Virus record (IMG/VR): IMGVR_UViG_3300009163_000019 | Source of the DNA: a virus | Reading direction: 5' to 3' (one strand) | Length of the DNA stretch: 64,000 nucleotides | Shown: piece by piece, positions 8,999 through 48,406 of the stretch | Layout of the letters: each line of letters opens with the position of its first letter | Position numbering within the stretch: the first letter of the stretch is position 1 | Made by a program: the position numbers and the translations under genes | Notes under the pieces: model-generated | Database searches by the model: none | The model's input: the letters and a program-made list of their open reading frames with translations, nothing else | What the model was told of the DNA's origin: nothing

Positions 8999-9000
8999 TT

Positions 9001-9623: not shown

Positions 9624-9628
9624 ATTAA

Positions 9629-10398: not shown

Positions 10399-10701
10399 AT
10401 GAAAGATATTTTTTACGACATTAGTGATTTTATATGGTCCAAAGAAAATAATTCATTTTATGCAGAAGCACCTTATCTTTATCCATTGGGAGATTATCAT
10501 TCTGCTTTTCCAAACGGTAAAAGTAAATTCTATATAAAGAATTTTAAGACTAATGACTTTCGTTCATTTATTTTTCAAGAAGAAAATATTGCTTACTATA
10601 TTTTAGATCAAGAAGAAGACTACACTATAGAAGAAACTATCTGGACATACAAAAGTGAGGACGGTATTCTCTGTCAAATATCCATTCCAACCGCTCCGTA
10701 G
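10399..10701 (+). CDS. Hypothetical protein
   Basis: Clean ORF. Confidence 0.5.
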   Translation: MKDIFYDISDFIWSKENNSFYAEAPYLYPLGDYHSAFPNGKSKFYIKNFKTNDFRSFIFQEENIAYYILDQEEDYTIEETIWTYKSEDGILCQISIPTAP

Positions 10702-18915: not shown

Positions 18916-19000
18916 AGTCAGGTAGCGGAAATGGTAGACGCATGCATCCCGTAAGATTTGCATTCCACTGAGATTACTGGTTCGACTCCAGTCCTGACTA
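18916..19000 (+). tRNA. tRNA-like gene with non-canonical anticodon arm (GTA in loop; Tyr-like or pseudo-tRNA)
   Basis: Acceptor AGTCAGG/CCTGACT+A, D-arm GCG-GAAATGGTAGA-CGC, T-arm ACTGG-TTCGACT-CCAGT; anticodon arm irregular; no encoded CCA. Confidence 0.7.
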
Positions 19001-19063
19001 CTCTGGATTTAAATAGCTTCCATCTCATGGGGATTTAGTATATTTAATAAATAAATAAAGGTT

Positions 19064-21844: not shown

Positions 21845-22140
21845 CACGAGTAGAACAAAAAGGAAATAAGGAGAGACTTATACTAAAGGAATTAATTGAT
21901 AAAATGTTTGAAATAGCAGGCCATCCTCTAAAGTTTGAAGATGTAGAAGGTAGAACTGATAATTGGTTTCAACAATACACTATGACTGAAGCTCAAAATG
22001 AGGAGTGGCGAAATTGGGGTACTAAATTTCTAAGTAAGAAACGTCGTTTTGGTATGAAGTTAGCGGATCGTGAAATGAGAATGTTAGATTTGTATTGTGG
22101 ATTGAGTATATCGGATAGTAGATTTGCAAAAGAATTATGA
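21841..22140 (+). CDS. Hypothetical phage protein
   Basis: ATGA overlap. Confidence 0.55.
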   Translation: MTRVEQKGNKERLILKELIDKMFEIAGHPLKFEDVEGRTDNWFQQYTMTEAQNEEWRNWGTKFLSKKRRFGMKLADREMRMLDLYCGLSISDSRFAKEL

Positions 22141-22754
22141 TAATACACACAATGTGGATAGGATCCGAGATCCCTATTAAATATCATAGTAACTTAGATA
22201 AATTCAGGATGTTAAATCCCGGCTTTCAACACATGCATTGGGGAGAGAATGATATAATCAGTATTTTTAAATATTTTAATCTAATAGAATTATATAATTC
22301 AATGCCTAGTTTTATAACTAAATTCAATTTGGCAAAGTATGCAATACTAGATAAATTCGGTGGGATATTCACAGACTTAGATATACAGTGGAAAAAATCA
22401 TTTATTGAAATTATGAATGATCAGGAGTTTAATGATATAGATATATTATTAACACATCCAGTAGATACAGCACATTATTATATAAATGATCAAGCCGTTA
22501 ATCTTTTAGATGATCCATTTATTATAGCCAGACCAAACCTACTTAGCCAATGTCTTGACTTTAGATTTAAAAGAGAGTTAAGAATAGATCCCGAAACAAA
22601 AGCCGTCCATAAAGCAGAACCTATAGGTCCTTTCTTATTAACAGAGTGGATTTATGCTAATCAAATAAAGCATAGAGCATTTAGCCAAACTGCATTTTTA
22701 AGTCTAAATGGTTTTTACGGATACCACGAACAATTAGATCTATGGAATAAATAA
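22137..22754 (+). CDS. GT32-like DxD glycosyltransferase (Gly_transf_sug)
   Basis: IIHTMWIG, NPGFQHMHW, KYAIL..FGGIFTDLD, IGPFLLT. Confidence 0.85.
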   Translation: MIIHTMWIGSEIPIKYHSNLDKFRMLNPGFQHMHWGENDIISIFKYFNLIELYNSMPSFITKFNLAKYAILDKFGGIFTDLDIQWKKSFIEIMNDQEFNDIDILLTHPVDTAHYYINDQAVNLLDDPFIIARPNLLSQCLDFRFKRELRIDPETKAVHKAEPIGPFLLTEWIYANQIKHRAFSQTAFLSLNGFYGYHEQLDLWNK

Positions 22755-33007: not shown

Positions 33008-33460
33008 CTATTCTAAGTCTTTTCTATAGAATCTTCCTTGTATATTATCATTATATGAATCTATACGAAGCACATCTAATTTCATTTGCCAGTAAACTTC
33101 CCAATAAGTAAGTTGTTTTTTAGAAAAACAGAGTTGTAAGATCTCTCTAGTAAATATTTCATTACCTAATTCTTTTCTTTCTAAATTTAGAGTCTTATTA
33201 CTTCCATAATAACTTAGCCAATCGCTTTCTTTTACCACTTTCTTTTTACGTGGGACGCGCCCAGGTTTGATCCAGGCCTCGATTTCCTTTTTGGTTAGTA
33301 TTTTATTATTATTGTTATATAAGACCTTTCTACCTATGTAGAATCGATTTGTAATAATGTTTGTGACCTTATATATAAAACCGACTGTATTCTCTGGAAA
33401 GTCTTCTACTTTGGTAAACTCTCTGTAGCTTCCTAAATTATCATGATGTAACCACTTCAT
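33008..33460 (-). CDS. GIY-YIG nuclease, T4 endonuclease II (DenA)-like
   Basis: GFIYKVTN...FYIGRK...SDW.SYYGS...FTREIL...E...YNDNI. Confidence 0.8.
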   Translation of the reverse strand: MKWLHHDNLGSYREFTKVEDFPENTVGFIYKVTNIITNRFYIGRKVLYNNNNKILTKKEIEAWIKPGRVPRKKKVVKESDWLSYYGSNKTLNLERKELGNEIFTREILQLCFSKKQLTYWEVYWQMKLDVLRIDSYNDNIQGRFYRKDLE

Positions 33461-33469
33461 AAATCTTTA

Positions 33470-33772
33470 TTAACTATCCCATCTGATAACAAAAGTCATA
33501 TCTGTATTTTGTGGGATAGGATATGGCCTAGATAATTTTCCTACTATTAATAATTCATCTTGTGCATTATATAAGCCAACAGTAGTTGTATAAGGATGAA
33601 AATCAGATCCTGTTACTGCGTCTATATAAGATCCTGAGCTGCCTGCTTTATTTGCACTAGGATTTAAAGTATAGTTAAAATCATTTTCATTTATTTGGCA
33701 TCTTACTTCATTTTGATAAATGGTAGATTCAGCTACAAAAGATAGTGTATATGGTACTGGTGGGAATGGCAT
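33470..33772 (-). CDS. Baseplate/tail structural protein, stand-alone C-terminal domain
   Basis: FNYTLNPS...TTVGLYN..DELL.VGKLS.P...FVIRWD, paralogous to the C-terminus of 46704..47735. Confidence 0.7.
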   Translation of the reverse strand: MPFPPVPYTLSFVAESTIYQNEVRCQINENDFNYTLNPSANKAGSSGSYIDAVTGSDFHPYTTTVGLYNAQDELLIVGKLSRPYPIPQNTDMTFVIRWDS

Positions 33773-33786
33773 ACTGTATATAAATA

Positions 33787-36267
33787 TTAGTTTTCCCTTC
33801 TTTCTTCAGGAGTATAGTGGGCTATTCTATTATGATTTACAGGACTAGCTAATAAAACAGCAGGTTTTAAATTTTCTTTTTTAGTTTCTTGAAACATATA
33901 ACTCATCCAAGTCTGTTCATAAGGACGAGCCCATGTAGTATCTAAAAACATTTTTTGGTTTCCTTTCTTTCCTGCAATAGTTGGCCAGTTGCAATAGTAA
34001 ATATCCCCTGTAATATAACTAAGACCATCTACAACTTCTATTTTATCAAATTTAGTTTTAGGAGAATTTGGATCAAGACCTGTTGTTGGTAGTTCATTAT
34101 ATTCAGGCCAAAATTCATTTCTTATTTGTTGTGGAACATTATACCAAGATACTTGAATATTATTATCCATATAAACTTCTGTATACGATAATTTTAAAAA
34201 ATCAATATCAGAAGAATCTATAATTTTTAATACTTTATCATATAGATCTGAAATATATGTTCTGAAACCGTTTCTACAAATTCCATTAACAGGTTCGTGT
34301 ATTCCCATATCGTCTTCTAAAAAGATATAATAATCACTATCTGATTCTTGAAAGTGTTGTGCGGCTCTAAATCTACCTCCATTAATACCAGTATTTTCAT
34401 TTGTTATGATGTGTTCAAAATTATACTTTTTACAAATTTCTGCATTAGCTAATCTAGCTTCATCATTAGTAGAATTATCTATTAAAATATTTCTAGTATT
34501 TGTTATCCATTTAGGATGTTTAAGCCAGGTATTTATTGTATGTTCTACTTGATGAGGAAAATTAAATGTCAACATGTAAAGCGACATTTTTAATTTAGAA
34601 GGATCAGTATTTTTTTTAATAAACCGAATTTTTTCCTCTGGTACGGGTTCTAACTCTACAGTATCATTTAATAGAGCTTGTATAAATTTAACTATTAATC
34701 CATTATCATCTAATGCATATCTTCTATATGTTTGAGGTTCTAAGTAAGACATTACGGTAAACAGACTTTCTTCTGTACCCATATAGCCTTCACTAATAGA
34801 TCTATCTAATAAAGAATAGTACATCGCATTAGCCTCATTTATAACTTCTTTTCTACCTCCAAATAATCCGCCTCTACAGACATATTCTACTTTTTTAGCA
34901 GCATAACGATTAATTGCTTGAAAATCAAATCCATGAATTTCATCAGCAGCCTGATAAGGATAAGTTAAAAATAAAAATGAATCTAAATGTGGAATTATTT
35001 TATCTAATGCTCTATTATCTGAAAAAAACTTTTCATATACTGTATTAGTAATTCCTGCATCTAACCAAATAAAATATTTAGTATCAAATGGATTCCATAT
35101 AGTAACATCATTTAATAAAAACATTTTTGATTGTACTATAGGATTATACCATTCTAAAACAGCTTGAGGACTTTGCTTAAGCCAACCGCCTTCCCCGGTT
35201 TTATTATACCAATCTGGATTAGTTCTTATTGATTGGGTTTTATCCCAAAAAGGTGCATATATATTTTTTACATCTTCTAATTCATATATTTTTACAGTAG
35301 TATTTTTTTTGTCTCTAATTTCCCAAATTAAATGTTCATATTTACTTTCTATGTAAATAAACATATTAACAGGAATTTCTAAAAATTTTTTAAAATGCTC
35401 TATGTAATGATCAAAATCCCTAACAGGTCTTCCTATATTCCACAAACCCGTAACTACAGTTAAGTCTTTATTATTTACCTCTATTTTAGAACGATTTTCT
35501 GTTAAATATTTTAATAACTGCTGAGATTCTTCTGTAGATAGTGTTTTTGTTTTTTCTATAATATCTGATAATTTTGATTCTTTATTTTTATCGCTACCTT
35601 TAATTTCATCCCAAATATTTTTATCTACAGCATCAATATCTTGCCCAATTTCAATTACATAGCCATTATCAATTAATTTTTGTTTAGTTAATTCTTTTTC
35701 TTCATCTGTTAAATTTATATATTCTAAACGAATAAACTTAGGTTTATATTTATTAAAATCTAATTGTTTTAAAATATTCCAATCATATCCTTCAACATCA
35801 CATATTAAAATATCAAATTTTTCAATATTATGTTTATTCATTAAAGAGTTTAAAGTTAATGTAGGAACTTTTATATCTATTCCAAAATTCTTTTTTACAT
35901 CTATATCTCTTTGATAATCTGTTCCAAAACCGTTTTTTAGTGGATATAAAGCACTCATACCTTTATAACCCGGATGTAGATTTTCTTTTTCTATTGCTAT
36001 TTTTGGAATAGTTAACATTTCTACTTCGCCATCTATTTCTGTAATAGCACATTGTTCAAATGCATAATTTTCCCTATCTCTAAAGTTATATTTTAATTCA
36101 GTAAATATTTCTGGAATTGGTTCTACTAATAACGCAGGCCATCTATACATGTCTAGAAAACCTCTTGTATCATCAAAATTTATTCCATCCATGGCTCCTA
36201 TTTGAACTACAAATGTATCTTTATGATTTTTACCTATATGATGTAAAGTTTTTGATATTATATCCAT
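33787..36267 (-). CDS. Three-domain fusion: FkbM methyltransferase + HtrL/YibB (WlaTC)-like GT + GT-A domain
   Basis: VQIGAMDG/LVEP/DVEGYD; TVVTGLWNIGR...WLDAGI...GGLFGG...GTEE; LIDNS...NTGINGGR...FLEDD. Confidence 0.78.
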   Translation of the reverse strand: MDIISKTLHHIGKNHKDTFVVQIGAMDGINFDDTRGFLDMYRWPALLVEPIPEIFTELKYNFRDRENYAFEQCAITEIDGEVEMLTIPKIAIEKENLHPGYKGMSALYPLKNGFGTDYQRDIDVKKNFGIDIKVPTLTLNSLMNKHNIEKFDILICDVEGYDWNILKQLDFNKYKPKFIRLEYINLTDEEKELTKQKLIDNGYVIEIGQDIDAVDKNIWDEIKGSDKNKESKLSDIIEKTKTLSTEESQQLLKYLTENRSKIEVNNKDLTVVTGLWNIGRPVRDFDHYIEHFKKFLEIPVNMFIYIESKYEHLIWEIRDKKNTTVKIYELEDVKNIYAPFWDKTQSIRTNPDWYNKTGEGGWLKQSPQAVLEWYNPIVQSKMFLLNDVTIWNPFDTKYFIWLDAGITNTVYEKFFSDNRALDKIIPHLDSFLFLTYPYQAADEIHGFDFQAINRYAAKKVEYVCRGGLFGGRKEVINEANAMYYSLLDRSISEGYMGTEESLFTVMSYLEPQTYRRYALDDNGLIVKFIQALLNDTVELEPVPEEKIRFIKKNTDPSKLKMSLYMLTFNFPHQVEHTINTWLKHPKWITNTRNILIDNSTNDEARLANAEICKKYNFEHIITNENTGINGGRFRAAQHFQESDSDYYIFLEDDMGIHEPVNGICRNGFRTYISDLYDKVLKIIDSSDIDFLKLSYTEVYMDNNIQVSWYNVPQQIRNEFWPEYNELPTTGLDPNSPKTKFDKIEVVDGLSYITGDIYYCNWPTIAGKKGNQKMFLDTTWARPYEQTWMSYMFQETKKENLKPAVLLASPVNHNRIAHYTPEERREN

Positions 36268-36268
36268 A

Positions 36269-37882
36269 TTATTTTGTTATGTAATAATTTTCTATTACTA
36301 GTCCGTCTAATTGTGTATTATTTAATATTTCAAATGCGTCTTTTATTGAAGAAAGTATAGGTTTACCATCTACATTAAATGATGTATTTAGTAGTACGCC
36401 TATACCGGTTTCTTCTTCAAATTTTGTTATTAAATTATATAACCATTCATTTTGTTCTTTTGTTACTGTTTGTACTCTAGCAGTACCATCAACATGTGTT
36501 ATTGATGGTAATTTATCTTTCCATTCCTCTTTTACTTTTGGACAAAAACTCATCCATCTAGATTCTTTATTCCATTCAAAATATTTATTTACATCTTCTA
36601 ATCTAACTACAGGAGCAAATGGTCTATACCACTCTCTATGTTTTACTTTTTCATTTAATATAGATTTCATTTCAGGAATAGTCGGATTACAAATAATACT
36701 TCTATTTCCTAAAGCTCTCGGTCCATGTTCTGATCTTCCTCTTGCAACACCGATTATTTTTCCATTAATAAGATCTTTAACTAAATCCTCTTCTTTTAGA
36801 TTATGAGAAGTAAAAAATATCTTATTATTTTGAATATAATCAGGTAATAAATCTAAGTCAAGTAAATTTGTACCAGAATAAGTACTATCAAAAGGTTTTT
36901 CAGGTTTTAAATTATCTAATATCATACCTAAACCTATTCCACAATCATTAGGATCAGGTCCAACAAATACTTCTTTATTAAATTCATTAACTAATCTGGT
37001 ATTTAATAAAATATTTAATCCACAACCTCCTGCTAAACATATTGGATATTCTTTATATTTTTCCATTTGAGGAATAGCAACTTCTAAAAAACAATCTTCA
37101 AAAGCTTTTTGAGATGTTGCAGCAATATCGTATGCTAATTGTCCTGTTAATCTATCAGTTATAGAAAATTCTACTCCTATAATATCACCTAAAACTTTTA
37201 TTTTATCAAAATAATTTCCTCCATTAGGATCACTCTTATAAAAATTTATAAAGTGTGGAAGCCACTCTTCATTTATTTTTCCATAAGATGATAGTCCCAT
37301 TATTTTTCCTGAATAAACTAAATTACCCATTCCTAAATCTTCAAATCTAATATCATTTAAGTAATGAGCAAATATCATATAAGGAAATCCTAAATCATAT
37401 CCGATATAATGAAGATTTAAAATTGGATTAATTACGCTTTGAATTTGCTCAGGAGATTTTCCTCTTTCACAAGTATAAACATTAAATTTTCCATCGTTTC
37501 CTCCACCATCAAAAGAAAATATTAGTGCTTTTTCAAAAGGAGATTGATAAAAAGATCCTGCGGCATGAGATAAATGATGTTTACATTCTATATAATTTTT
37601 TGCGGGTATAAATTTATGTAAATAATAAAGTTCATGTATAACTATATCAGTGTTTATATAATAGCAATTATCAAATTCTTCAATATTATATTTATTCATT
37701 ATCCATTTAGGAATATATTCGGCTAAAAATACTATGTCTAAAACTTTTGGACAATAATATTGAGCTAATCCAGAATTTTTATAATTTAAAAATCTTTCAA
37801 CTTCTAAAACTAATTCTATTTTGCCGTCTATTTCTAAAACATACGACGCATTATGAGAACCATAAAAAGATATATTTACCAT
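36269..37882 (-). CDS. O-carbamoyltransferase, NodU/CmcH/TobZ family
   Basis: HHLSHA, DGGG, GKIMGL, AGGCGLN, EHGPRALGNRS, KHREWYRPFAP, HVDGTARVQTV, LNTSFN. Confidence 0.95.
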   Translation of the reverse strand: MVNISFYGSHNASYVLEIDGKIELVLEVERFLNYKNSGLAQYYCPKVLDIVFLAEYIPKWIMNKYNIEEFDNCYYINTDIVIHELYYLHKFIPAKNYIECKHHLSHAAGSFYQSPFEKALIFSFDGGGNDGKFNVYTCERGKSPEQIQSVINPILNLHYIGYDLGFPYMIFAHYLNDIRFEDLGMGNLVYSGKIMGLSSYGKINEEWLPHFINFYKSDPNGGNYFDKIKVLGDIIGVEFSITDRLTGQLAYDIAATSQKAFEDCFLEVAIPQMEKYKEYPICLAGGCGLNILLNTRLVNEFNKEVFVGPDPNDCGIGLGMILDNLKPEKPFDSTYSGTNLLDLDLLPDYIQNNKIFFTSHNLKEEDLVKDLINGKIIGVARGRSEHGPRALGNRSIICNPTIPEMKSILNEKVKHREWYRPFAPVVRLEDVNKYFEWNKESRWMSFCPKVKEEWKDKLPSITHVDGTARVQTVTKEQNEWLYNLITKFEEETGIGVLLNTSFNVDGKPILSSIKDAFEILNNTQLDGLVIENYYITK

Positions 37883-38871
37883 TATTTTATGTGTAATAAT
37901 TTTAAACCGTGTGATAACCTATTTTCAGGACTACAATAATCTAAATAATATTGTCTTGCATTTTTAGCTATATAATTTAAAAACTCTGCGTCTTCTTTAA
38001 CTTCTAAAAATCTATCTATATAAGCTTTTATATAATTTTCTCCACCTAATCTATCTAAGCCATTATTATAAGGTAAATTATATTTAGCTCTATCTATTGC
38101 AATATAATGATAATTTGGTATTAATGGAGGATTTAATTGAGTCATATATTCAACTCTTAAAAATGGAACACCTATTGCCATATATTCCATTTCTCTATAT
38201 GAGTATTCCGCAGTAGTTCCAATTGCTAATCCTATTTTATGTTTTATTAATTCCTCAAAGTATGTTCCCATTCTTTTTGGCGTTAAGTCTTTATTCAAAT
38301 ATCCTAATTCTGATAATTTAACAGGATCAAATCTTTGAGTAGTATATAGCATGAATAGCTTATCTTCTAAATCAGAACTTGGAATATTTTTTCTTTTGGT
38401 ATATATATCCTCTAAATTAATTCTATCTGGATTTATTATATCATTTGTAGAATTATCTTGGACAGGATAAAAAACTGTTTGAGAAACTGTAAAATTATAA
38501 TCGGATAGATTCATATTGTCTTTACCTGTTTCTATAACTTTATTAAACCAATTATAAAATTGAGTTATTAATAATAAATCATTTTTATTATTTCTTTTAA
38601 CAAATACATCTTCCCAAATTTTAGTATAATGTTCACTATAACTTATTCCTTTTAATATATCATTTTCTTTATCATATATTAATAATTCACAGTCTGCCAT
38701 TTCATAATCAAATTCTTCAATATACATTGTAATACCTCCTGGACCTGGATAATTAGTTTTTCTTATGACTTCTGCACCATATTCTTTTTTGTAATATTCT
38801 ACAATTTCTTTAAATAATCCTTGCCAACTACTATATGCATAGCTAACATTTTCAAAATAATAAATTACCAT
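37882..38871 (-). CDS. Putative GT-B glycosyltransferase (Glyco_trans_1_2/GT90-like C-terminus)
   Basis: KIGLAI.....SYREMEYMAIGVP...LIPNYHYI...IAKNARQYY. Confidence 0.65.
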   Translation of the reverse strand: MVIYYFENVSYAYSSWQGLFKEIVEYYKKEYGAEVIRKTNYPGPGGITMYIEEFDYEMADCELLIYDKENDILKGISYSEHYTKIWEDVFVKRNNKNDLLLITQFYNWFNKVIETGKDNMNLSDYNFTVSQTVFYPVQDNSTNDIINPDRINLEDIYTKRKNIPSSDLEDKLFMLYTTQRFDPVKLSELGYLNKDLTPKRMGTYFEELIKHKIGLAIGTTAEYSYREMEYMAIGVPFLRVEYMTQLNPPLIPNYHYIAIDRAKYNLPYNNGLDRLGGENYIKAYIDRFLEVKEDAEFLNYIAKNARQYYLDYCSPENRLSHGLKLLHIK

Positions 38872-38887
38872 AAATTATATATTAAAT

Positions 38888-40156
38888 TTAAATTGTGTGT
38901 TCTACTCTTTCTGCCCAACCAATTTCTTTACTATAACCCCAATAAACTACTCTAGTTGGTGTTTTATCAGTTAAAAAATACTCTTCATAGTGAATATTTT
39001 TTCCTTCCTCAATAAACTGCCTCAATTCTTCCCCGGTTATAAATTTATTATTTATTGAATTACCATTTGTATCATCAAATGCTACTAGTATATATTCATA
39101 ATCATTTCTTAAAAAATCTTTACGTTCTACTGTAACTAAGTAATAAAATGACTTATTAAAACTATATTCCCATAAATCATTATCATTAATAAGAGGATTA
39201 GGTGGATAATGATTATCTAAAGAGTATTGCTGAACAGACATTTTTTTAAAATTAAATCCAGCATATTTTTCATAATCTCTTAAAGATCTAACTGTTCCTA
39301 AATCATAGCCTGTTAAATCTATATTAGGATCTTCTTCTGTTCCTAATAAAACCCGTATTTTTTTTCTAGCTAATTCTTGTTTATTCCACCAATCTACTCC
39401 TAATTTTGCATCGTCATCCCACTTTAACATTCCTGATCTCTCTTCACGCATAGTTGAATGCCAAACAACTAATCTATGTGGATGAAATAAATCATATCCG
39501 TGAGTATATGATCTTACTGTTAAGTTTAATTCTTCACCTGAAAAATATATATCTGGATCGTGTCTTATTTCTTTTGCCCACTCTGATCTTGCAAAACAAA
39601 AGTGTCCTGATAAAAATCTACTCATCGGAGGTTCTGTCATATCTTGCCAGCCAGTAAGTAATCCAGGTCTTATGAATATTGTTCCATGTGGATAGAAACA
39701 TACAAATTGTTGTTGCCAGGGCTCCATTGTGCGGCCACCAGGATCATTAAAAGGTGTATACAATGGTAGATAGGCAGCTAATATAGGTTTATAACCACGA
39801 GCCTCTAAACCACTATGCATATCTATTAGAGTTTCATCCCAATCTTTAGCAAATCTATGATGTGAATCTAATTGACAAACATAGTCTTCATCTGTTAATA
39901 ATTTCTCATTTATAATAGATCTAGCCCAAGGAAGTCCTTGAGCCTCATTATATAAACATTCATAGATTTTAAAACGTTTATCATTTTTAAATTCTGATAA
40001 ATCGTCGAATCCATCTTCTGGATGATATTGTCTGCAGATACCAAAGTGTATTCTTTTTGGGTGTTTTGCATTTAATAAAGCATCTTTAATAGTAGGAATT
40101 AATTCAGGATCTCTGTAAGCTGGTAAATGTACCAGTATTGTTTTTTTATTATTCAT
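38888..40156 (-). CDS. GT60-like polypeptide/hydroxyproline alpha-GlcNAc transferase (Pfam GlcNAc type), paralog B
   Basis: AYRDPEL, QLDSHHRF..DWD..L, YLP.Y, FLSGHFCF, HDP.IYFSGEE, YTHGYDLFHP, VWH. Confidence 0.85.
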   Translation of the reverse strand: MNNKKTILVHLPAYRDPELIPTIKDALLNAKHPKRIHFGICRQYHPEDGFDDLSEFKNDKRFKIYECLYNEAQGLPWARSIINEKLLTDEDYVCQLDSHHRFAKDWDETLIDMHSGLEARGYKPILAAYLPLYTPFNDPGGRTMEPWQQQFVCFYPHGTIFIRPGLLTGWQDMTEPPMSRFLSGHFCFARSEWAKEIRHDPDIYFSGEELNLTVRSYTHGYDLFHPHRLVVWHSTMREERSGMLKWDDDAKLGVDWWNKQELARKKIRVLLGTEEDPNIDLTGYDLGTVRSLRDYEKYAGFNFKKMSVQQYSLDNHYPPNPLINDNDLWEYSFNKSFYYLVTVERKDFLRNDYEYILVAFDDTNGNSINNKFITGEELRQFIEEGKNIHYEEYFLTDKTPTRVVYWGYSKEIGWAERVEHTI

Positions 40157-41405
40157 ATTCTATAACTTGTTCAATTCTTTCCATCCAACCTTTTGATTTT
40201 GTGTGAGGCCAAACTCTCCAAGAATGCGCTTTTCGATTATCTTCATACTCTCTCCAAATATGAATAAATTGATCATTACTGTCTTGATTAATTAATCCAC
40301 GTATTTCATTTTCATCACAATCTCTTCTATATAAATCATTTCCATCTTCGTCTAAAAATGCAACTGCAAATTGATCATAATCAGATTCTATAAGTGATCC
40401 CTTATAAATATCAATACAATGTTTTATCTTACTCGCTAACCCAGACTCATAATCCCCTTTAATTGGAGGAAAATCATTATTAAGAGTTTCTTTGTGTATC
40501 TGTCTTGTAGAAAATTTTAATCCGGCATATCTTTCATAAGCATCTAAAGTTTCAATATAACCAAAATAATTCGGAGCTAAAGCTCTTCTAGTGCAAGAAG
40601 AACAACCAGGATCCATTCCCATTAATTTTCTATATCTTGCATAAGATGCATCATCTCTTTCTTTCCAATCATTAGAATCATCCCAATGTTTTTTCTTTCC
40701 TTCTCTTGTATATTCATGCCATATAACAGGCCTATGTGGAGAAAATAAATTATATCCAAAAGTAAAAGCTCTAGCAGCTAAAGAACTTTCTTCTCCATGA
40801 AAATATAATTCAGGATCATAAGGAACTTCTATTGGAAATGAACCTAATGTAAAAATAAAATGAGCAGATATAAATCTTGCAGGAAAAGGTTCTTTATGAT
40901 CTTGCCAATTTGGAATATGGTGAGGAGCTAAAAATATAGCTCCCGCAGGCATGAATCTATCTATATTTAAACCCCACACTTCATGAACTCTTGCATTCGG
41001 ATCATTATTAGGAAAATATCCAGGTACATAAGCAGATAATAAAGGTTTTTTATATCCTTTACATTGTAAATAGTGTATATAATCTTTTAAAGTTATATCC
41101 CAGTCTTGTAAAAATCTATGATGTGAATCTAATTGTAAATAATATTCCTGATCTGTATAATGTTTTTGAATTTCTGCACGCATCCAACAAACACCTTTAG
41201 CTTCTTTATATGGAATATCTAAAATAATAAATCTAGAATCATTTTTATATTCATCTAGATTATCCCAAGTATCTTCTTCTGAATGTTGCCAACCAATACA
41301 AATAGTAAAATTTTCTGGATTAACACAATTAGTTAATAAATCTTTTATAGTAGGAAGTAATTCTGGATCTCTATAAGCTGCTATCGAAACAAAAATTCTT
41401 GACAT
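40149..41405 (-). CDS. GT60-like polypeptide/hydroxyproline alpha-GlcNAc transferase, paralog A
   Basis: IFVSIAAYRDPEL, LQLDSHHRF..DWD, EVPYDPELYFHGEE, AFTFGY.LFSP, IWHEY; start at MSRIFV. Confidence 0.88.
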   Translation of the reverse strand: MSRIFVSIAAYRDPELLPTIKDLLTNCVNPENFTICIGWQHSEEDTWDNLDEYKNDSRFIILDIPYKEAKGVCWMRAEIQKHYTDQEYYLQLDSHHRFLQDWDITLKDYIHYLQCKGYKKPLLSAYVPGYFPNNDPNARVHEVWGLNIDRFMPAGAIFLAPHHIPNWQDHKEPFPARFISAHFIFTLGSFPIEVPYDPELYFHGEESSLAARAFTFGYNLFSPHRPVIWHEYTREGKKKHWDDSNDWKERDDASYARYRKLMGMDPGCSSCTRRALAPNYFGYIETLDAYERYAGLKFSTRQIHKETLNNDFPPIKGDYESGLASKIKHCIDIYKGSLIESDYDQFAVAFLDEDGNDLYRRDCDENEIRGLINQDSNDQFIHIWREYEDNRKAHSWRVWPHTKSKGWMERIEQVIEYE

Positions 41406-41406
41406 A

Positions 41407-41447
41407 ACGTAAATATACAAAATTTATTTGATATAAAAAAATTTATT
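41407..41447 (-). promoter_or_regulatory. Early/middle-type promoter in front of the glycosylation genes
   Basis: AAATAAATTTTTT...TATATTTA on the minus strand, same architecture as the early promoters. Confidence 0.5.
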
Positions 41448-44400
41448 TTAACATGGACCTGCGGCTATATTTGCTGTAAATCCTCTAGTAGGTGTTGCAG
41501 AATTTACAGCAGCTGTACACGTACCTCCTGCTGTAGGACAAGTACTGTTTGCAGATATACCACAATTATAAGGACTTCTATCTGCATTATTCACTAATTG
41601 AACTAATGCTGAATCACCTGCATTTAATATGAATGAAGCTCTAAATCCGCAAGTAGAAACAGCAAATGCGGCTCCTACAGGAGTATAATTAAATCCACCA
41701 TCTGTTGAATATTCAAATTGAACAAAAGTTGCATTATCACTAGTTTTACCATATAAATTAACAGTAAATGGACCAGACGTAGACGGAGTTACACTAGGAG
41801 TTCTAGTTGGCGTTGGTGATGGTGAAGGACAAGCCGCTATACTTTGAATCAATCCACTACCTCCTGTTACTGTACCATAATTCGTTCCATTAGAATAGAA
41901 TCCGTTATTTACTGTATTAGATCCTATTGAATCCATAGCATTTGTTTTATATAGAATCATACCAGCTTGAAATGCTGAGGTATACGAATAATATGTTGTT
42001 AAAGTTTCTGTTGCTGTACATGCAGTTAATCCACTTGATGCATTATAGTATAACGCATAAGAATATACTACTCTACTAGGACTAGGAGTATTACTAGGTG
42101 TTATACTAGGAGTTATACTAGGTGTTACTGTTCTAGTAGGAGTTATACTAGGAGTTATACTAGGTGTTTTACTAGGTGTTACTGTTCTAGTAGGAGTTAT
42201 ACTAGGAGTTATACTAGGTGTTACTGTTCTAGTAGGAGTTATACTAGGAGTTACACTAGGTGTTGTTGATCTAGTAGTACTTACACTAGGAGTCGGTACC
42301 GCTGTACAATCTTGAACATTAGTTATATTTCCTGCTCCATCCATTTCAACAGCGTATGTGACACCACTTCTAGTAATATAGTGCCATGTAGTTCCTAAAT
42401 ATTTATTAGCCGGATTTAAAGTATCAGTAGTATATATAATGCCTCCTATTGCAGGAACATTATAAGATGAATTCATCCATACAGGAAGGGACGCTCCAGC
42501 ATTAGCGCAAGCTAATGTAGATGTTGCGTATGCTGTATTATTAATTAAATATGCAACAGGTGCCGCAGTAACACTAGGAGTTACGCTAGGAGTTATACTA
42601 GGTGTAATACTAGGAGTTCTACTAGGTGTTACGCTAGGAGTGCCGCTAACGCTAATTGACGGAGTAGGTGCAGGAGTACACGCTATATTTACTGTATATG
42701 TATCAGTTTTTGGATCAGCAGGATTATATGTTCCTGTTTCAACTAATAAGTAATATGTTATACTATTATTATAAGTAAAATCTAAATATCCAGTAGGTGA
42801 TCCGAATGTATTAGGCGTTGGAAGGGTTGGACAATCCCAATCAGGCGCGGAATAACAAAAATCAGATCCTACCCAACTTGAAGAAACGGCAGTTGCTATG
42901 CCATTTTCATAGACTGTAAATCTATTAGGCCTTTCATAAGCTTGATAAAAAAGTGATATTGCACTTCCATTAGGAGTAGATGAAAAATCTAAACAATAAA
43001 ATTCCTGATGGTAATCATTACCACTATATCCTCCTGATATAATATCTCCACAATCATTTGGACATCCACCTGGACCATATGCCGATCTTGTAGGACTTAC
43101 AGAAGGTGTATTAGTTGCTGTGGGAGTGGGGGGTGGTGTACAAATAACTCTTATATAATAAGCATCTGTTATTCCAATATCCTCACAAATATCAACTATC
43201 ACATAATATGTTCTTGAACTATTGTATGTAAATGTTGTATCTACAGGGTTTATGTCAATAGGAGTACAAGGGGAACTAGGTGCTGATGATGGTGATCCTA
43301 ACCATCCAGTTGTAAATATCGGTGATGGATTTACGCTATCATACAATGTAAATCTGTCAGGCCTATCTCTTCCATCAAATTGTATATATATAGAAGAACC
43401 ATTTGCCGTAGATGTTAAATCAAGATTTACTTGTTGTTGTGATGCATTATTAGGACTATAAGAACCTATATAACTACCTCCACAACTTAATACTGGATTT
43501 GGTGTTGTTGAAGGTGTTATAGTAATACTAGGTGTTGTACTAACTGTTATACTAGGTGTTATGCTAGGAGTTCTACTAGGTGTAATAGTAATACTAGGAG
43601 TAATACTAGGAGTAATACTCGGTGTTATGCTAGGTGTTACGCTAGGAGTTCTACTAGGCGTTGCGGTTACACTAGGTGTTGCAGTTACTGTTGGTGTAAC
43701 ACTTATACTAGGTGTTGCTGTTATACTAGGTGTTGCTGTTACTGTTGGAGTAATAGTTATACTAGGTGTTATACTAACAGTAATACTAGGTGTTACGCTA
43801 GGTGTTATGCTAGGAGTTACACTAGGTGTTATTGATATGCTAGGTGTTACGCTAGGTGTTATGCTAGGTGATACACTAGGAGTTACACTAATACTGGTAG
43901 TAATGCTAGGAGTTATACTAGGAGTTACACTAGGAGTTATACTAATACTGGTAGTGATGCTAGGTGTTATGCTAGGTGTTACACTAGGTGTTATTGATGT
44001 AGTAGTAGTAATGCTAGGAGTTATACTAGGTGTAATACTTGGCGTAATGCTAGGTGTTATACTAGGGGTAACTGTTGCTGTTACACTAGTAGTAATACTA
44101 GGAGTTATACTAGGTGTTACGCTAACAGATATACTAGGAGTTATACTTGGAGTTACACTAGTAGTAATACTAGGAGTTACGCTAGGTGTTATGCTAGGAG
44201 TTACTGATATACTAGGTGTTACACTAGGAGTCATTGTTATAGTTACACCTGGTGTTGATGTTGGACTAGCTGTCAAAGTTATAGTAGGAGTAATACTTAT
44301 GCTAGGTGTTGCTGTTACTGTTGGCGTAATAGTTATACTAGGCGTTGCTGTTACACTAGGTGTTGCAGTTATACTAGGTGTAATACTAATACTAGGCGTT

Positions 44401-45413
44401 GCTGTTACACTAGGCGTTGCTGTTACACTAGGTGTAATACTTATGCTAGGTGTAGATGTTACAGTTGGTGTAATAGTTATACTAGGCGTTGCTGTTAAAC
44501 TAGGTGTAATACTTATACTAGGTGTAGATGTTACAGTTGGCGTAATAGATATACTAGGCGTTGCTGTTACACTAGGCGTTGCTGTTACACTAGGTGTAAT
44601 ACTTATGCTAGGTGTTACACTAGGAGTCATTGTTATAGTTACACCTGGTGTTGATGTTGGGCTAGCTGTCAAAGTTATAGTAGGTGTAATACTTATGCTA
44701 GGTGTAATAGTTACTGTCGGGGTAATAGTTACACTAGGTGTTGCTGTTACAGTTGGTGTAATAGTTATACTAGGCGTTGCTGTTACACTAGGTGTAGGTG
44801 TTACCGTTGGTGTAATAGTTATACTAGGAGTCGCAGTCATACTAGGTGTTGTTGTTACTGTTGGACTAATACTTACACTAGGTGTTGCGGTTACTGTTGG
44901 AGTAATACTTATACTAGGTGTTGCAGATACTGTTGGACTAATACTTACACTAGGTGTAGATGTTACCGTTGGTGTAATAGTTATACTAGGTGTTGCTGTT
45001 ACAGTTGGTGTTATGCTAGGAGTTACACTAGGTGTTATTGATATAGTAGTAGTAATACTAGGAGTTATACTAGGTGTAATACTAGGAGTTACGGTAACAG
45101 ATATACTAGGAGTTATACTAACAGTTATACTAGGTGTAATACTCGGTGTTATAGAAACAGTAACAGATGGAGTAGGACTCGGAGCAACTATATATCTAAT
45201 TACTTGATTATTACCTGAACAAAATTCTTGATTTATTAATTTTACATAAACACTATTATCATTTATAGTTACTGTATAACCTGCTAATAAAGTATCAATT
45301 GAAACATTTGCCTGGATTAATACATCTGGACCACTATAACTTGTACCGTAATACAAATTAAACGGCCCTACCGAATCTCCATATGTACTTCCTAATGTTA
45401 TTAATACTTGCAT
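41448..45413 (-). CDS. Mucin-like Thr-Pro-Ser repeat virion/fibre protein with Cys-rich globular domains
   Basis: ~560-aa TPS(I/V)/TPTVT tract, further TPS linkers between duplicated Cys-containing beta domains; located in the baseplate module. Confidence 0.8.
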   Translation of the reverse strand: MQVLITLGSTYGDSVGPFNLYYGTSYSGPDVLIQANVSIDTLLAGYTVTINDNSVYVKLINQEFCSGNNQVIRYIVAPSPTPSVTVSITPSITPSITVSITPSISVTVTPSITPSITPSITTTISITPSVTPSITPTVTATPSITITPTVTSTPSVSISPTVSATPSISITPTVTATPSVSISPTVTTTPSMTATPSITITPTVTPTPSVTATPSITITPTVTATPSVTITPTVTITPSISITPTITLTASPTSTPGVTITMTPSVTPSISITPSVTATPSVTATPSISITPTVTSTPSISITPSLTATPSITITPTVTSTPSISITPSVTATPSVTATPSISITPSITATPSVTATPSITITPTVTATPSISITPTITLTASPTSTPGVTITMTPSVTPSISVTPSITPSVTPSITTSVTPSITPSISVSVTPSITPSITTSVTATVTPSITPSITPSITPSITPSITTTTSITPSVTPSITPSITTSISITPSVTPSITPSITTSISVTPSVSPSITPSVTPSISITPSVTPSITPSVTPSITVSITPSITITPTVTATPSITATPSISVTPTVTATPSVTATPSRTPSVTPSITPSITPSITPSITITPSRTPSITPSITVSTTPSITITPSTTPNPVLSCGGSYIGSYSPNNASQQQVNLDLTSTANGSSIYIQFDGRDRPDRFTLYDSVNPSPIFTTGWLGSPSSAPSSPCTPIDINPVDTTFTYNSSRTYYVIVDICEDIGITDAYYIRVICTPPPTPTATNTPSVSPTRSAYGPGGCPNDCGDIISGGYSGNDYHQEFYCLDFSSTPNGSAISLFYQAYERPNRFTVYENGIATAVSSSWVGSDFCYSAPDWDCPTLPTPNTFGSPTGYLDFTYNNSITYYLLVETGTYNPADPKTDTYTVNIACTPAPTPSISVSGTPSVTPSRTPSITPSITPSVTPSVTAAPVAYLINNTAYATSTLACANAGASLPVWMNSSYNVPAIGGIIYTTDTLNPANKYLGTTWHYITRSGVTYAVEMDGAGNITNVQDCTAVPTPSVSTTRSTTPSVTPSITPTRTVTPSITPSITPTRTVTPSKTPSITPSITPTRTVTPSITPSITPSNTPSPSRVVYSYALYYNASSGLTACTATETLTTYYSYTSAFQAGMILYKTNAMDSIGSNTVNNGFYSNGTNYGTVTGGSGLIQSIAACPSPSPTPTRTPSVTPSTSGPFTVNLYGKTSDNATFVQFEYSTDGGFNYTPVGAAFAVSTCGFRASFILNAGDSALVQLVNNADRSPYNCGISANSTCPTAGGTCTAAVNSATPTRGFTANIAAGPC
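43500..45190 (-). repeat. Coding tandem-repeat tract of 12- and 18-bp units, with a ~98-bp duplication (44212-44309 / 44608-44705)
   Basis: Recurring CTAGG(T/A)GT units; the duplicate copies differ at two positions. Confidence 0.9.
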
Positions 45414-45434
45414 TTAATTTAAATACTTTTTTTA

Positions 45435-46697
45435 TTATAGTATATTGCTACATTGATTATATCCTGTTATTCTATATACTTTTCCATTTACTGTAATATC
45501 TTGTGGACTAGATGTTATATTAGTTCCATTTAATGATAATACAGAAGGTTTCCAACTATTTGCCGTGTAAATTCCAGATCCATTATCGCATATAGGATTA
45601 CTATCATAAAATTGAGGATATGCAGATCCTGAAGGTATAAATAATTCAGTACTTAATGAATTATAGAATACATCAGTTCTAAATATACAGGCTCCTAAAT
45701 TAGTTCCATTACAACTTGTACCTGTGTATTTTATTATTTGTCCTGTTATAGTTAAATCGTCAGCTATAGATCCAGAAGTTATTTCTCCTGTAACCTTGAC
45801 ATCACCAGATCCATTATTAAATCCATAAACTAATATTTTAGCTTGTATAATAGAATTAGAAGTTGATGGTGTTACTGTTACAGTAGGAGTTTGTGTTACT
45901 GTTGGTGTTATAGTTATACTTGGCGTTATACTAGGGGTTATACTAACAGTTGTACTTGGTGTTTTACTAACTGTCTTACTAGGTGTCTTACTAGGAGTTG
46001 TAGTTTTAGTTGGTGTTATACTAGGAGTAATACTCGGTGTTTTACTTGGTGTTACAGTAGGTGTTTGAGTAAGTCCTGGTGTTATAGAAATTGTTACACT
46101 TGGACTAGGAGACGCAGCTATTATTGTAGATAGTGTAAAATCAAAACTAGGATCTGCTACTAAACATACATAATCTTCATTTGTAAATGTAATAATTCCT
46201 TGTGCATATAAAACATTTCCTACATGAACATTATTATTAAATGTGTCTACTATATTACCATTACCATCATCTATAATATTATAACTAGTTCCATCAGTAG
46301 AAGCAATATTAACTGTTCTTCTACTCATTTGTTCTCCAAACTGTCTTGATGGAATTGCAAAAAATCCTATATTACTTCCAGTAGCAGAAGGAAAATATCG
46401 ATTATCATCATCTAAACTACCCGATGCTCCTGTAGATTGTATAGAAGGATCCCAATAAGAAGCGGATCCTATAATAGATCCAGTTATATAATTTTGATAA
46501 TAAAGTTGCTTTATTACAGCATACTTATTTCTCTTAATAAAGGGTAACCCAGGAGAAGGTGAAACTATATTCGTACCCCTATTAGTAGTTATTCCGTAGT
46601 CCAGTAAAGACTGACTCGCATAGGTAGCAGAATATTTTACTTTTATAGGAGCCGAAGATATATCCGATTTTTTTATGGTATTCTTCGATCTGCTCAT
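45435..46697 (-). CDS. Baseplate/tail structural protein N-terminal part + TPS tract + Cys-rich domain
   Basis: DDGNGN...HVGNVLYAQGIITFT, then ~85-aa TPS tract; lacks the C-terminal domain seen in the upstream paralog. Confidence 0.65.
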   Translation of the reverse strand: MSRSKNTIKKSDISSAPIKVKYSATYASQSLLDYGITTNRGTNIVSPSPGLPFIKRNKYAVIKQLYYQNYITGSIIGSASYWDPSIQSTGASGSLDDDNRYFPSATGSNIGFFAIPSRQFGEQMSRRTVNIASTDGTSYNIIDDGNGNIVDTFNNNVHVGNVLYAQGIITFTNEDYVCLVADPSFDFTLSTIIAASPSPSVTISITPGLTQTPTVTPSKTPSITPSITPTKTTTPSKTPSKTVSKTPSTTVSITPSITPSITITPTVTQTPTVTVTPSTSNSIIQAKILVYGFNNGSGDVKVTGEITSGSIADDLTITGQIIKYTGTSCNGTNLGACIFRTDVFYNSLSTELFIPSGSAYPQFYDSNPICDNGSGIYTANSWKPSVLSLNGTNITSSPQDITVNGKVYRITGYNQCSNIL

Positions 46698-46703
46698 TTA
46701 ATT

Positions 46704-47735
46704 TTACCAATCTAATTTTACTCTAATTAAAGCCTCTTTAGTAAAGTCTTTTGTCAAAGGTTTAGATAATTTAGCTACTGCTACTAATTCATTATTATCA
46801 TTATACATACCTACAGATGTTGGAAATGTCTGTGGACTATTAATAAAGTTTGAGTATATTAATGTACCAGATCCTGATATAAATGAAGGATTGGTTGTAT
46901 AATTATATTCTCCATTTTTAATTCTTACAAAAATATAATCAGAAGATATAGTTTCTTGAGAATTTAATTGGAAATAAGCGCCTCTATTAATTGCTTGGAA
47001 AATAAGTTCTTGATTTGCATTAGCCGCTTGAGCAGTTGCTGCAGTACTTAAAGTATATCCTAATCCACCTGCATTTGCCGGTAAGCTAATAGCCTTTGGA
47101 TTTAAAACAATTAATCCAAGATCTGGGAGCATTAAACCATAACTACCTGAGGCAGTATATCCTTTAGCAGAAGCTCCTGATAATAGTGGACTATTTACAG
47201 CACTACCATTAGAACCTGAGATAATATCATAAACTCTTCCACCATCTACATAATTAACGATACTAACATCATTAGAATTATCTGTAAGAGTTAAAACATT
47301 TGTTCCATTACTAAGTCTTAGATTAAAAGTACCAGGGAAAAGACTCTCTTTATACTTATTTCTATCAACAGGAATTGCAATTAAATCAATTGAAGAGGTA
47401 TTACCAGCTCCAAAATTTACAGCGCTTTCTGCATCTCCATAAATTAAATTTCTATACTGACCAAAAGTAATTCTTGTCGGAGTATTTGCTAAAACTAAAT
47501 TATTAAGAGGAGCAGATCCTGATCCTAAAGCATGTCCGTAAGCAAATGAAAATTGTATAGAAGAAGTAGTTGCTGTTACTGGCGCATTATATACATCTAA
47601 GTAATTGCTTCCAGTATTTGCTGCTGATGCTGTATAAAATGAAGATAATATAGTAGCACCATTACTCCAAGCCGGGGCTGTAACGGAATCAGATGATACT
47701 ACAAAATCTGTTGGGTCTAATCTTGTAAATGACAT
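46704..47735 (-). CDS. Baseplate/tail structural protein
   Basis: FVRIKN.EYNY..NPSF...VGMYNDNNELVAVAKLSKP...VKLDW; module context. Confidence 0.7.
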   Translation of the reverse strand: MSFTRLDPTDFVVSSDSVTAPAWSNGATILSSFYTASAANTGSNYLDVYNAPVTATTSSIQFSFAYGHALGSGSAPLNNLVLANTPTRITFGQYRNLIYGDAESAVNFGAGNTSSIDLIAIPVDRNKYKESLFPGTFNLRLSNGTNVLTLTDNSNDVSIVNYVDGGRVYDIISGSNGSAVNSPLLSGASAKGYTASGSYGLMLPDLGLIVLNPKAISLPANAGGLGYTLSTAATAQAANANQELIFQAINRGAYFQLNSQETISSDYIFVRIKNGEYNYTTNPSFISGSGTLIYSNFINSPQTFPTSVGMYNDNNELVAVAKLSKPLTKDFTKEALIRVKLDW

Positions 47736-47746
47736 ATCTTATTTTA

Positions 47747-48406
47747 TTATTGATTTACTTTTGTAATAGTTACAGGAATACTAATTCTAGCACCAGAATC
47801 ACGACCAACAACAATCAGTGTTGTATATAATGAAGTATTAGCTCCAAATAATGTATTAACAGTAGTTGCACTTATGTTAATAGTTGTTCCAATTACTGTT
47901 TTACTTACATTCGTACCAATAGTTGCGGTAGAATTTAAACTAGTTGCTTCAGCAGTATTAATACCGACTCCATTAAATGAACTCATAGTTCTAACATCAC
48001 CAATAGTAGCCACATATCCTGATTGCTCAAATGTAGATGTAGCTCCTAAATAGTTTAAAGTCTGTGGAGTTATAGAAAGAGAAGCACCTTGGCGAATAAC
48101 AATTGCGGTATATCCAAGATCTAGTACAGGTATTTTAGCTGTTCCTCTAGGAAGCGTAATTAACTTATACTTCATTATTTCTGTATCATTAGGATATGCT
48201 TGAAGTATTGGCATGGCTTCTATAGCCTCACCATAAAAAGCAGATCCAGAAGGATGATTTGGATTATATAAAGTGTAATCTATCTCGTCATCAGCTAAAG
48301 AGAATTGAGTAATTCTAAATGATCCATCATTACGAGCTAAAAGCTCTCTACCTTTCTTAGTTAGGATGGCATCAACAATTACTGAGGAATTTTGTAAATA
48401 TGACAT
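47747..48406 (-). CDS. Conserved virion structural protein
   Basis: VDAILTKKGRELLA...ITQFSLADDEIDY; ATATTTAT upstream. Confidence 0.7.
   Translation of the reverse strand: MSYLQNSSVIVDAILTKKGRELLARNDGSFRITQFSLADDEIDYTLYNPNHPSGSAFYGEAIEAMPILQAYPNDTEIMKYKLITLPRGTAKIPVLDLGYTAIVIRQGASLSITPQTLNYLGATSTFEQSGYVATIGDVRTMSSFNGVGINTAEATSLNSTATIGTNVSKTVIGTTINISATTVNTLFGANTSLYTTLIVVGRDSGARISIPVTITKVNQ

Follow-up and report, generated by a model that had tools for sequence, protein, structure and literature searches.

Gene content and layout of the locus

The 64,000-nucleotide (nt) stretch of viral DNA analyzed here (IMG/VR record IMGVR_UViG_3300009163_000019; hereafter, the window) carries on its minus strand, at positions 33787 to 46697, a single compact run of seven genes, in which two proteins with long tracts rich in Thr-Pro-Ser (TPS) are followed by a set of predicted glycosyltransferases and sugar-modifying enzymes. 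This arrangement suggests a phage-encoded O-glycosylation system that may act on structural proteins of the phage itself, as had been proposed in an earlier note on this DNA. The run starts with the TPS-tract proteins P0002 (420 amino acids [aa]; 45435 to 46697) and P0001 (1321 aa; 41448 to 45413), which are followed by GT60a (418 aa; 40149 to 41405) and GT60b (422 aa; 38888 to 40156), two members of the glycosyltransferase family GT60. The remaining genes encode the GT-B-like protein P0005 (329 aa; 37882 to 38871), the NodU/CmcH-type O-carbamoyltransferase P0006 (537 aa; 36269 to 37882), and P0007 (826 aa; 33787 to 36267), a fusion of FkbM, HtrL, and weakly GT2-like domains. Coordinates and translations place all seven genes on the minus strand, where the earlier note had put them. 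They belong to a wider run (33008 to 48406, minus strand) with all genes co-directional and intergenic gaps of -8 to +42 nt. The same note had assigned the two TPS-tract genes to the baseplate module. However, the baseplate wedge genes (phrog_219) lie further upstream, at 54122 to 55978, and the run is distal to the baseplate genes, in a tail fiber and tail spike slot instead.

No transmembrane segment is predicted in any of the seven proteins (maximum Kyte-Doolittle hydropathy over 19 residues [KD19], 1.42). Soluble proteins of this kind are consistent with glycosylation in the cytoplasm, the compartment in which proteins of the phage fold and which an O-glycosylation system in the periplasm of the host would be unable to reach. 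A scan of the run for sigma-70 promoters was uninformative, with fewer sites than in shuffled sequences, and no terminator inside the run was convincing enough to divide it.

TPS-tract proteins

P0001 has a beads-on-a-string architecture, with a 75-aa N-terminal domain, a 569-aa stalk (residues 76 to 644), two paralogous β-sandwich modules of ~125 aa, two modules of ~85 aa, and a Cys-rich C-terminal module, the modules being spaced by TPS linkers of 24 to 81 aa. Its TPS-rich tracts (residues 76 to 644, 756 to 779, 912 to 952, 1036 to 1116, and 1191 to 1219) total ~744 residues, in agreement with the long TPS(I/V)/TPTVT repeat that had been noticed in this protein. The main tract consists to 94% of T, P, S, I, and V (70% T, P, and S), contains two charged residues, and includes 99 TPS, 60 TPSI, 29 TPSV, and 12 PTVT words, the last of these being the recurrent motif to which the earlier note had drawn attention. 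Pro makes up 18% of the stalk. Of its Ser and Thr residues, 89% precede P, I, V, A, L, or M, and 87% have a Pro at position -1, +1, or +3, which is the context favored by mucin-type initiating transferases. The tract is not a chance feature, because the underlying DNA consists of tandem arrays with periods of 12, 36, 54, and 216. If extended, the stalk would measure ~140 to 175 nm, judging from its residue count.

A 548-aa open reading frame (ORF) on the plus strand of the same region (43561 to 45207) was rejected as a gene, since it reads the complementary strand of the TPS repeat, which contains no stop codons. The GC skew flips over positions 42000 to 46000, where it reaches +0.18 to +0.22, compared with -0.11 to -0.23 over the enzyme genes (34 to 42 kb) and about -0.03 at 46 to 50 kb, on the high-coordinate side of the repeat stretch.

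The AlphaFold2 (AF2) model of a P0001 module is all-β, with a predicted local distance difference test (pLDDT) score of 88. Its fold matches are weak and include GOLD, collagen-binding/PPC, and carbohydrate-binding module (CBM) domains (E values of ~1e-3, TM scores of 0.4 to 0.5). Assignment of the module to lectins or CBMs was set aside, as these are generic β-sandwich matches, and a binding role of the modules is a guess from the predicted fold. Pfam searches with the separate domains of P0001 and P0002 gave no match, and ESM Atlas searches with the P0001 modules retrieved only unannotated viral clusters, below 0.9.

P0002 proved to be the second protein with a TPS tract that the earlier note had reported. 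It consists of an N-terminal domain of ~190 aa, the tract at residues 206 to 283, and a C-terminal domain of ~140 aa, and shows a weak match to phrog_15511. Its N terminus is 37 to 67% identical to the first gene of the corresponding slot in eight related IMG/VR loci (L002, L005, L008, L061, L063, L064, L068, and L071; here and below, L denotes loci and G genomes in our collection).

GT60 enzymes

Both GT60 genes match the Pfam family PF11397 far above its cutoff of 21 bits (GT60a, E value of 3e-61, 208.3 bits; GT60b, E value of 6e-50, 171.1 bits). A check of the proposed GT60 identity by profile and fold searches thus came out in its favor for both genes, with the fold of GT60a being nearest to polypeptide N-acetylgalactosaminyltransferases (ppGalNAc-Ts). 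GT60a combines the PF11397 catalytic domain of the GT-A type with a C-terminal α/β domain of ~100 aa. No ricin-type lectin domain was matched in this protein; its C-terminal 124 residues give only a subthreshold match to DUF7671. GT60a also matches phrog_24687 (E value of 8e-141) and has 4216 homologs in metagenomes. An alternative start at TTG 41420 is less likely than ATG 41405, which gives 418 aa, as in the homologs.

The AF2 model of GT60a has a pLDDT of 93.9, and its top ~50 fold matches in the Protein Data Bank (PDB) are all ppGalNAc-Ts (Foldseek E values of ~1e-10), namely, GalNAc-T1, -T2, -T4, -T7, -T10, and -T12, Toxoplasma T3, and Drosophila PGANT9. A phmmer search of PDB sequences with GT60a found nothing, so that only the fold search was informative. 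Residues D93-x-H95 and H230 (GT60a numbering), which may bind a metal, are invariant in an alignment of 53 phage relatives and are also present in GT60b. GT60b is a paralog of GT60a (38% identity), the start of its gene overlapping the end of the GT60a gene by 8 nt, and the order of the pair is kept in most related loci.

GT60 comprises polypeptide α-N-acetylglucosamine (GlcNAc)-transferases that start mucin-type glycans in Dictyostelium and Trypanosoma cruzi, and its characterized enzymes transfer GlcNAc onto Thr of mucin-like repeats or hydroxyproline (Hyp) of Skp1 (PMC8724618, PMC9472816). The published functions had been cited correctly in the earlier note. The family also includes the Hyp-specific cytoplasmic Skp1 transferase Gnt1 (as cited in PMC8724618).

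A megablast search with the GT60 pair found nothing in 50,697 phage records, and tblastn against phage records found only four jumbo phages of Xanthomonas and Stenotrophomonas. Two IMG/VR contigs binned as giant-virus metagenome-assembled genomes (MAGs), the GVMAG contigs L048 and L049, encode GT60 relatives 39 to 40% identical to GT60a, so that the family spans tailed phages and putative Nucleocytoviricota bins.

Phage lineage and the hypervariable fiber slot

The baseplate wedge protein of the window shares 46% identity with its counterpart in Flavobacterium phage immuto (160 kb) and 44% with the one in Microcystis phage Mel-JY01, and the related IMG/VR contigs judged complete have 160 to 185 kb. 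By sequence similarity, this uncultured, freshwater-type phage is an Immutovirus-like myovirus, probably of 160 to 185 kb and, given the size of its relatives, probably not a jumbo phage. Synteny with immuto identifies the slot of the tail fiber and tail spikes as the stretch bounded on one side by the 219-aa gene (47747 to 48406, minus strand), at the upstream end of the run, and the 343-aa gene (46704 to 47735, minus strand), which lies between the 219-aa gene and P0002, and on the other side by a 150-aa gene (33008 to 33460, minus strand).

In the three simplest relatives (L063, L065, and L071), a P0002-like N terminus and a domain that matches a 100-aa ORF of the window (33470 to 33772, minus strand) form one gene of 280 to 374 aa. 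In the window and in L061, L064, L068, L075, and L078, these two gene halves are parted by 1 to 11.7 kb of variable genes. Comparison with the relatives thus indicates that the 100-aa ORF is the detached C-terminal domain of an ancestral slot gene and marks the far edge of the inserted block, and that the TPS proteins and the enzyme genes are cargo of one hypervariable fiber slot. The ~90-aa C-terminal domain of the first slot gene, which in the intact gene follows an N-terminal adaptor, also ends the 343-aa gene and several fiber-slot proteins of Mel-JY01. In a close relative with a 185-kb contig, a slot without GT60 (L068:11730-14294) encodes an 854-aa protein that has β-sandwich modules of the P0001 type and no TPS linker. 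In nearly all relatives, the slot ends with the 150-aa gene, which has a match to phrog_447 (“NAD synthetase,” E value of 7e-32) and weaker ones to the homing-endonuclease families phrog_314 and phrog_7363. A nuclease-like gene at the slot edge might promote exchange of the cargo.

Co-occurrence of GT60 with TPS tracts

At least 57 loci in IMG/VR encode relatives of GT60a, with GT60 present in one or two copies and, in nearly all of them, accompanied by the HtrL/GT2-like module; the carbamoyltransferase and the GT-B-like gene are present in some of these loci and missing from others. The slot-level comparison was anchored on the 219-aa gene and covered 70 relatives in which the slot could be read through, a TPS tract being counted from 60 aa upward. 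Of these, 10 had GT60 together with a TPS tract, 58 had neither, one had only GT60, and one had only a TPS tract (Fisher's exact test, P = 3e-10). Each trait changes ~7 times on the tree of the anchor gene.

The same association was seen in whole genomes, which were searched with a TPS-repeat query by HMMER. TPS-repeat ORFs were found in 10 of the 12 GT60-positive contigs, the two negative ones being 17 to 21% complete, and in none of the 7 GT60-negative contigs or genomes. In complete genomes, the counts were 4 of 4 with GT60 and 0 of 5 without it. The co-occurrence check proposed along with the O-glycosylation idea was therefore favorable: GT60 and TPS-repeat genes go together in related and distant phages, within the slot and in the whole genome.

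One apparent TPS-only locus, L124, was rejected as such, since the complete 183-kb genome to which it belongs (G002) carries a GT60a-GT60b-CmcH-HtrL/GT2...GT-B cassette elsewhere, ~45 kb or more from the fiber slot (L150:1-11545 and L151:8349-9412). A further TPS ORF, running across contig ends, directly precedes this relocated cassette.

A different variant occupies the same slot in L115 (positions 4263 to 10682), where a 2-oxoglutarate (2OG)-Fe(II) oxygenase of the prolyl 4-hydroxylase (P4H) type (PF13640) precedes a 1205-aa protein, in which a protein-O-fucosyltransferase-like domain (PF10250) is fused to two GT60 domains, and a carbamoyltransferase comes third. The three families (2OG oxygenase, O-fucosyltransferase-like, and GT60) all have characterized protein-acting members, and, by analogy, this gene set recalls the Skp1 hydroxylation-glycosylation pathway.

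Accompanying enzymes

P0006 matches both domains of the NodU/CmcH carbamoyltransferases above the Pfam cutoffs (PF16861, E value of 3e-66, 222.6 versus 27 bits; PF02543, E value of 4e-23, 82.9 versus 24 bits), as well as phrog_1601 (E value of 2e-125), so that its earlier assignment to this group holds. It is not a NodU equivalog, scoring 152.6 bits against that model (E value of 2e-44), whose cutoff is 1000 bits.

P0007, described previously as an FkbM-HtrL-GT fusion, has two of these three parts above the Pfam cutoffs: an FkbM methyltransferase domain at residues 22 to 192 (PF05050, 51.9 versus 22.7 bits; TIGR01444, 45.3 versus 37.7) and an HtrL/YibB-like domain at residues 268 to 514 (PF09612, 54.8 versus 24.1 bits). 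The latter is far under the NCBIfam equivalog cutoff (55.9 versus 264.9). The third part, residues 562 to 654, is best described as GT2-like, its match to PF00535 (19.6 to 21.1 bits) staying just below the cutoff of 23.3 bits. The HtrL and GT2-like part, which corresponds to ORF330 of Xanthomonas phage XacN1, adjoins GT60 in most of the GT60 loci.

For P0005, there was no Pfam, PHROG, or NCBIfam match, and its assignment to GT-B draws on fold comparison instead: its structure neighbors in the ESM Atlas are Glyco_trans_1_2, GT90, RXYLT1, and GT4 clusters (TM scores of 0.60 to 0.65), which makes it probably a glycosyltransferase with a GT-B fold. As a variable cassette member, it occurs in 10 of the 57 related loci (including L007, L008, L010, L012, L015, L031, and L037 to L039).

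Comparison with known systems

A known counterpart with the same core cassette is found in XacN1, a jumbo phage. Its ORF334 (GT60), ORF333 (carbamoyltransferase), and ORF330 (HtrL/GT2) are 36, 47, and 38% identical to the respective proteins of the window, and this cassette adjoins large structural ORFs that have PT linkers. Many tracts of the PT/TPS type occur in XacN1 ORFs that adjoin the tail sheath genes. In contrast to the phage of the window, XacN1 has a 385-kb genome, infects a gammaproteobacterium, and encodes a single GT60. XacN1 virions gave at least two Schiff-positive bands, for which the authors proposed the glycosyltransferases of the phage as makers (PMC5852040, Supplementary Fig. 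S4); they did not recognize GT60, its relation to mucin-type enzymes, or the PT/TPS tracts as candidate acceptors (PMC5852040).

The protist GT60 enzymes (Dictyostelium pp-αGlcNAcT, T. cruzi TcOGNT1/2, and Gnt1) share with those of the phage the PF11397 domain, the GT-A fold, the DxH motif, and the lack of a ricin-type lectin domain. The acceptors of the characterized members are Thr-rich, Pro-containing, mucin-like repeats, and Gnt1 is cytoplasmic and soluble, as are the phage enzymes. The phage enzymes differ in being viral, in operating (if active) in the bacterial cytoplasm, in forming a conserved a/b pair, and in having the extra C-terminal domain of ~100 aa. They are coupled to HtrL/GT2-like, carbamoyl-, and methyltransferases, whereas the protist systems extend the glycan with galactose, galactofuranose, or sialic acid.

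The animal and apicomplexan ppGalNAc-Ts of family GT27 are the nearest solved structures and share with GT60a the DxH...H layout of the putative metal site; a preference for Ser/Thr near Pro would be a further common feature. They belong to a separate family, however, with 10 to 14% identity, and are type II membrane proteins of the Golgi apparatus that carry a ricin lectin domain.

Mycobacteriophages of the Che8 and Corndog type also encode glycosyltransferases beside structural genes and use their own virion proteins as targets. There, capsid and tail-tube subunits carry the glycans at their C termini (Freeman et al. 2023, cited in PMC12619734 and PMC12582341). The enzyme families are different, and the modified sites are short C-terminal tails, compared with candidate acceptors of hundreds of TPS-repeat residues in fiber-slot proteins; the mycobacteriophage glycans have been measured, whereas the system of the window is known from its genes. 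Chlorovirus PBCV-1 and Mimivirus resemble the system proposed here in that their structural proteins are glycosylated in the cytoplasm by virus-encoded enzymes, independently of the host. They are, in contrast, giant viruses of eukaryotes, with N-linked or bacillosamine/rhamnose-type glycans and other glycosyltransferase families.

Proposed function and alternative explanations

On the strength of the domain assignments, the predicted folds, and the co-occurrence of GT60 with TPS tracts, we consider it reasonably likely that the run is a phage-encoded cytoplasmic O-glycosylation cassette that travels with its own substrates and decorates their TPS stalks. The O-glycosylation interpretation of the earlier note is thereby supported in part, namely, where it turns on GT60 identity and co-occurrence. 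The run also lies within the late structural block, at the place where immuto has its tail fiber and spikes, which counts in favor of this interpretation. In such a scheme, P0002 and P0001 would be made late in infection, in the position of tail fibers, with their long (Thr/Ser)-(Pro/Ile/Val) stalks. The soluble GT60a and GT60b would move the first sugar, by family precedent an α-linked N-acetylhexosamine, from the UDP-sugar pool of the host onto stalk hydroxyls. The HtrL-like and GT2-like domains and the GT-B-like enzyme may then extend this sugar, with the FkbM domain O-methylating and the NodU/CmcH enzyme O-carbamoylating the glycan. This would yield a glycosylated stalk, stiffened and resistant to proteases, that holds the β-sandwich modules, as putative binding domains, away from the baseplate. 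The acceptor role of the TPS tracts, the accepting residue (Thr/Ser or Hyp), the nature of each sugar, the sequence of reactions, the incorporation of the proteins into virions, and their biological role are all inferred in this scheme; the bottle-brush spacer, shield, or adhesin function suggested previously is speculation.

Several observations weigh against this interpretation. Glycosylation of TPS proteins in these phages is deduced from gene content, and P0001 is a candidate virion protein judging by the position of its gene. Its stalk could serve as a plain unglycosylated linker and, with Pro, Ile, or Val at every second residue, alternates in a way unlike that of classical mucins. The GT-B and GT2 assignments are weak, and we know of no activity established for HtrL. 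The association of GT60 with TPS tracts is strong, yet it does not prove that the enzymes act on the tracts, and the loci and genomes compared are few and related to each other: on well-supported branches, an independent-pairs test gave three pairs changing the same way and one the other way, which is too few for significance. The discordant loci are L115, with GT60 and no TPS tract on a 13.6-kb contig, and L098, with a 930-aa TPS protein and no GT60 on a 26-kb contig. The two are sister taxa on short contigs, L098 being 16% and L115 8% complete. The GT60-positive genome G011 has a single weak TPS match (E value of 5e-7). Finally, the Schiff-positive bands of XacN1 have no protein assignment (PMC5852040).

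Alternatively, the cassette could be an auxiliary or host-takeover module that alters envelope glycans of the host (lipopolysaccharide [LPS] core, O-antigen, or capsule) or makes a free polysaccharide, for the purpose of superinfection block or progeny release, with the TPS tracts being ordinary unglycosylated linkers nearby. This explanation, which we regard as rather doubtful, gains some weight from PHROG, where the class “moron, auxiliary metabolic gene and host takeover” includes both the GT60 and the carbamoyltransferase family, from the naming of HtrL/YibB after a gene of the Escherichia coli LPS-core cluster, and from the presence of further sugar genes in the window (DmpG-like aldolase, NAD epimerase, GT2/7C-like, and GT32-like). 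Many GT60 loci, moreover, have no TPS ORF within 10 kb. Across whole genomes, GT60 nevertheless follows the TPS genes, including cases in which they are not neighbors. The cassette, whose proteins are all soluble, has no membrane-bound or polyprenyl-phosphate-linked enzyme, flippase, or polymerase, and a late fiber operon is an unusual place for host-takeover genes. Protein modification is the activity of every characterized GT60 member (PMC8724618) and of the nearest solved folds.

It is also conceivable, but unlikely, that the cassette glycosylates mainly other virion proteins, such as the capsid, sheath, tube, or globular fiber domains, rather than the TPS stalks. Modification of capsid and tail-tube C termini in mycobacteriophages, as summarized in PMC12619734, sets a precedent for such targets, and the unassigned Schiff-positive bands of XacN1 would fit them. 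This explanation, however, does not account for the joint gain and loss of TPS-repeat genes and GT60, nor for the TPS gene directly before GT60 at two different genomic sites, and the precedent within the GT60 family is for Thr/Pro-rich repeats.

Slightly less probable still is glycosylation of the stalks via Hyp, as in Skp1 and plant extensins, with GT60 acting like Gnt1 and a prolyl 4-hydroxylase encoded elsewhere. The Pro content of the stalk, the PF13640 oxygenase directly before the GT60 fusion in L115, and the Hyp specificity of Gnt1 (as cited in PMC8724618) all speak for this route. Against it, neither the cassette nor any other scanned ORF of the window yielded a 2OG oxygenase, and such an enzyme is not usual in the many cassettes examined.

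Modification of phage DNA against restriction, with glycosylated or carbamoylated hypermodified bases, is highly improbable: DNA glucosylation is the best-known activity of phage glycosyltransferases (a general statement in PMC12619734), but the window showed no genes for a hydroxymethylase or for base modification, the PF11397 fold matches enzymes with peptide acceptors, and the late fiber operon and the TPS association point elsewhere.

Novelty and implications

Glycosylation of phage virions is as a general idea already known, from the mycobacteriophages and from the suggestion made for XacN1. To our knowledge, it has been measured only in mycobacteriophages, with different enzymology. Initiation of mucin-type glycans by GT60 and GT27 enzymes is regarded as a eukaryotic trait, and our literature search found no paper linking GT60 or PF11397 to phages. 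New in the window are the non-jumbo lineage, the fiber-slot cargo structure, and gain and loss among close relatives, and, in the relatives, the relocated cassette of G002 and the P4H/fucosyltransferase variant of L115.

GT60 homologs number more than 4000 in metagenomes and are spread over 160-kb Immutovirus-like phages, 385-kb jumbo phages, and contigs of giant-virus MAGs. We give even chances to a broader proposition: that GT60-initiated O-glycosylation is widespread in phages and builds mucin-like tail-appendage stalks in the bacterial cytoplasm, that substrate and enzymes move as a unit, and that the hydroxylase/fucosyltransferase variants mirror the Skp1 pathway. If so, such a kit would glycosylate Thr and Ser residues by the hundreds within the bacterial cytoplasm. 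This would account for a phage gene family that is large, abundant, and unannotated and would change the view of fiber length, stiffness, protease resistance, and antigenicity in environmental phages. The kit would also provide soluble enzymes for the production of mucin-like glycoproteins in bacteria and would be relevant to the question of where eukaryotic GT60 and GT27 came from, with viruses as possible carriers of GT60 enzymology between bacteria and protists. The cassette also occurs in cultured phages (XacN1, Xoo-sp13, and Stenotrophomonas phages CM1 and RAS14), which makes the idea directly testable.

Other sugar-related genes in the window

A second sugar-related cluster is found on the plus strand at positions 1 to 3615. 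It consists of an acetaldehyde-dehydrogenase dimerization domain in a gene cut by the window edge (34 to 522), a DmpG/HMGL-like aldolase with a weak match to NeuB (522 to 1520), an NAD-dependent epimerase/dehydratase (1517 to 2335), and a 427-aa transferase that combines GT2 and Glyco_transf_7C-like domains (2332 to 3615). This cluster may supply or use an unusual sugar. A 205-aa GT32-like glycosyltransferase with the DXD region of PF04488 (E value of 2e-10) is encoded at 22137 to 22754 on the plus strand; with this gene included, the window encodes at least seven glycosyltransferase-like domains. ARAGORN predicts a tRNA-like gene with an undetermined two-base anticodon (“gt”) at 18916 to 19001, also on the plus strand.

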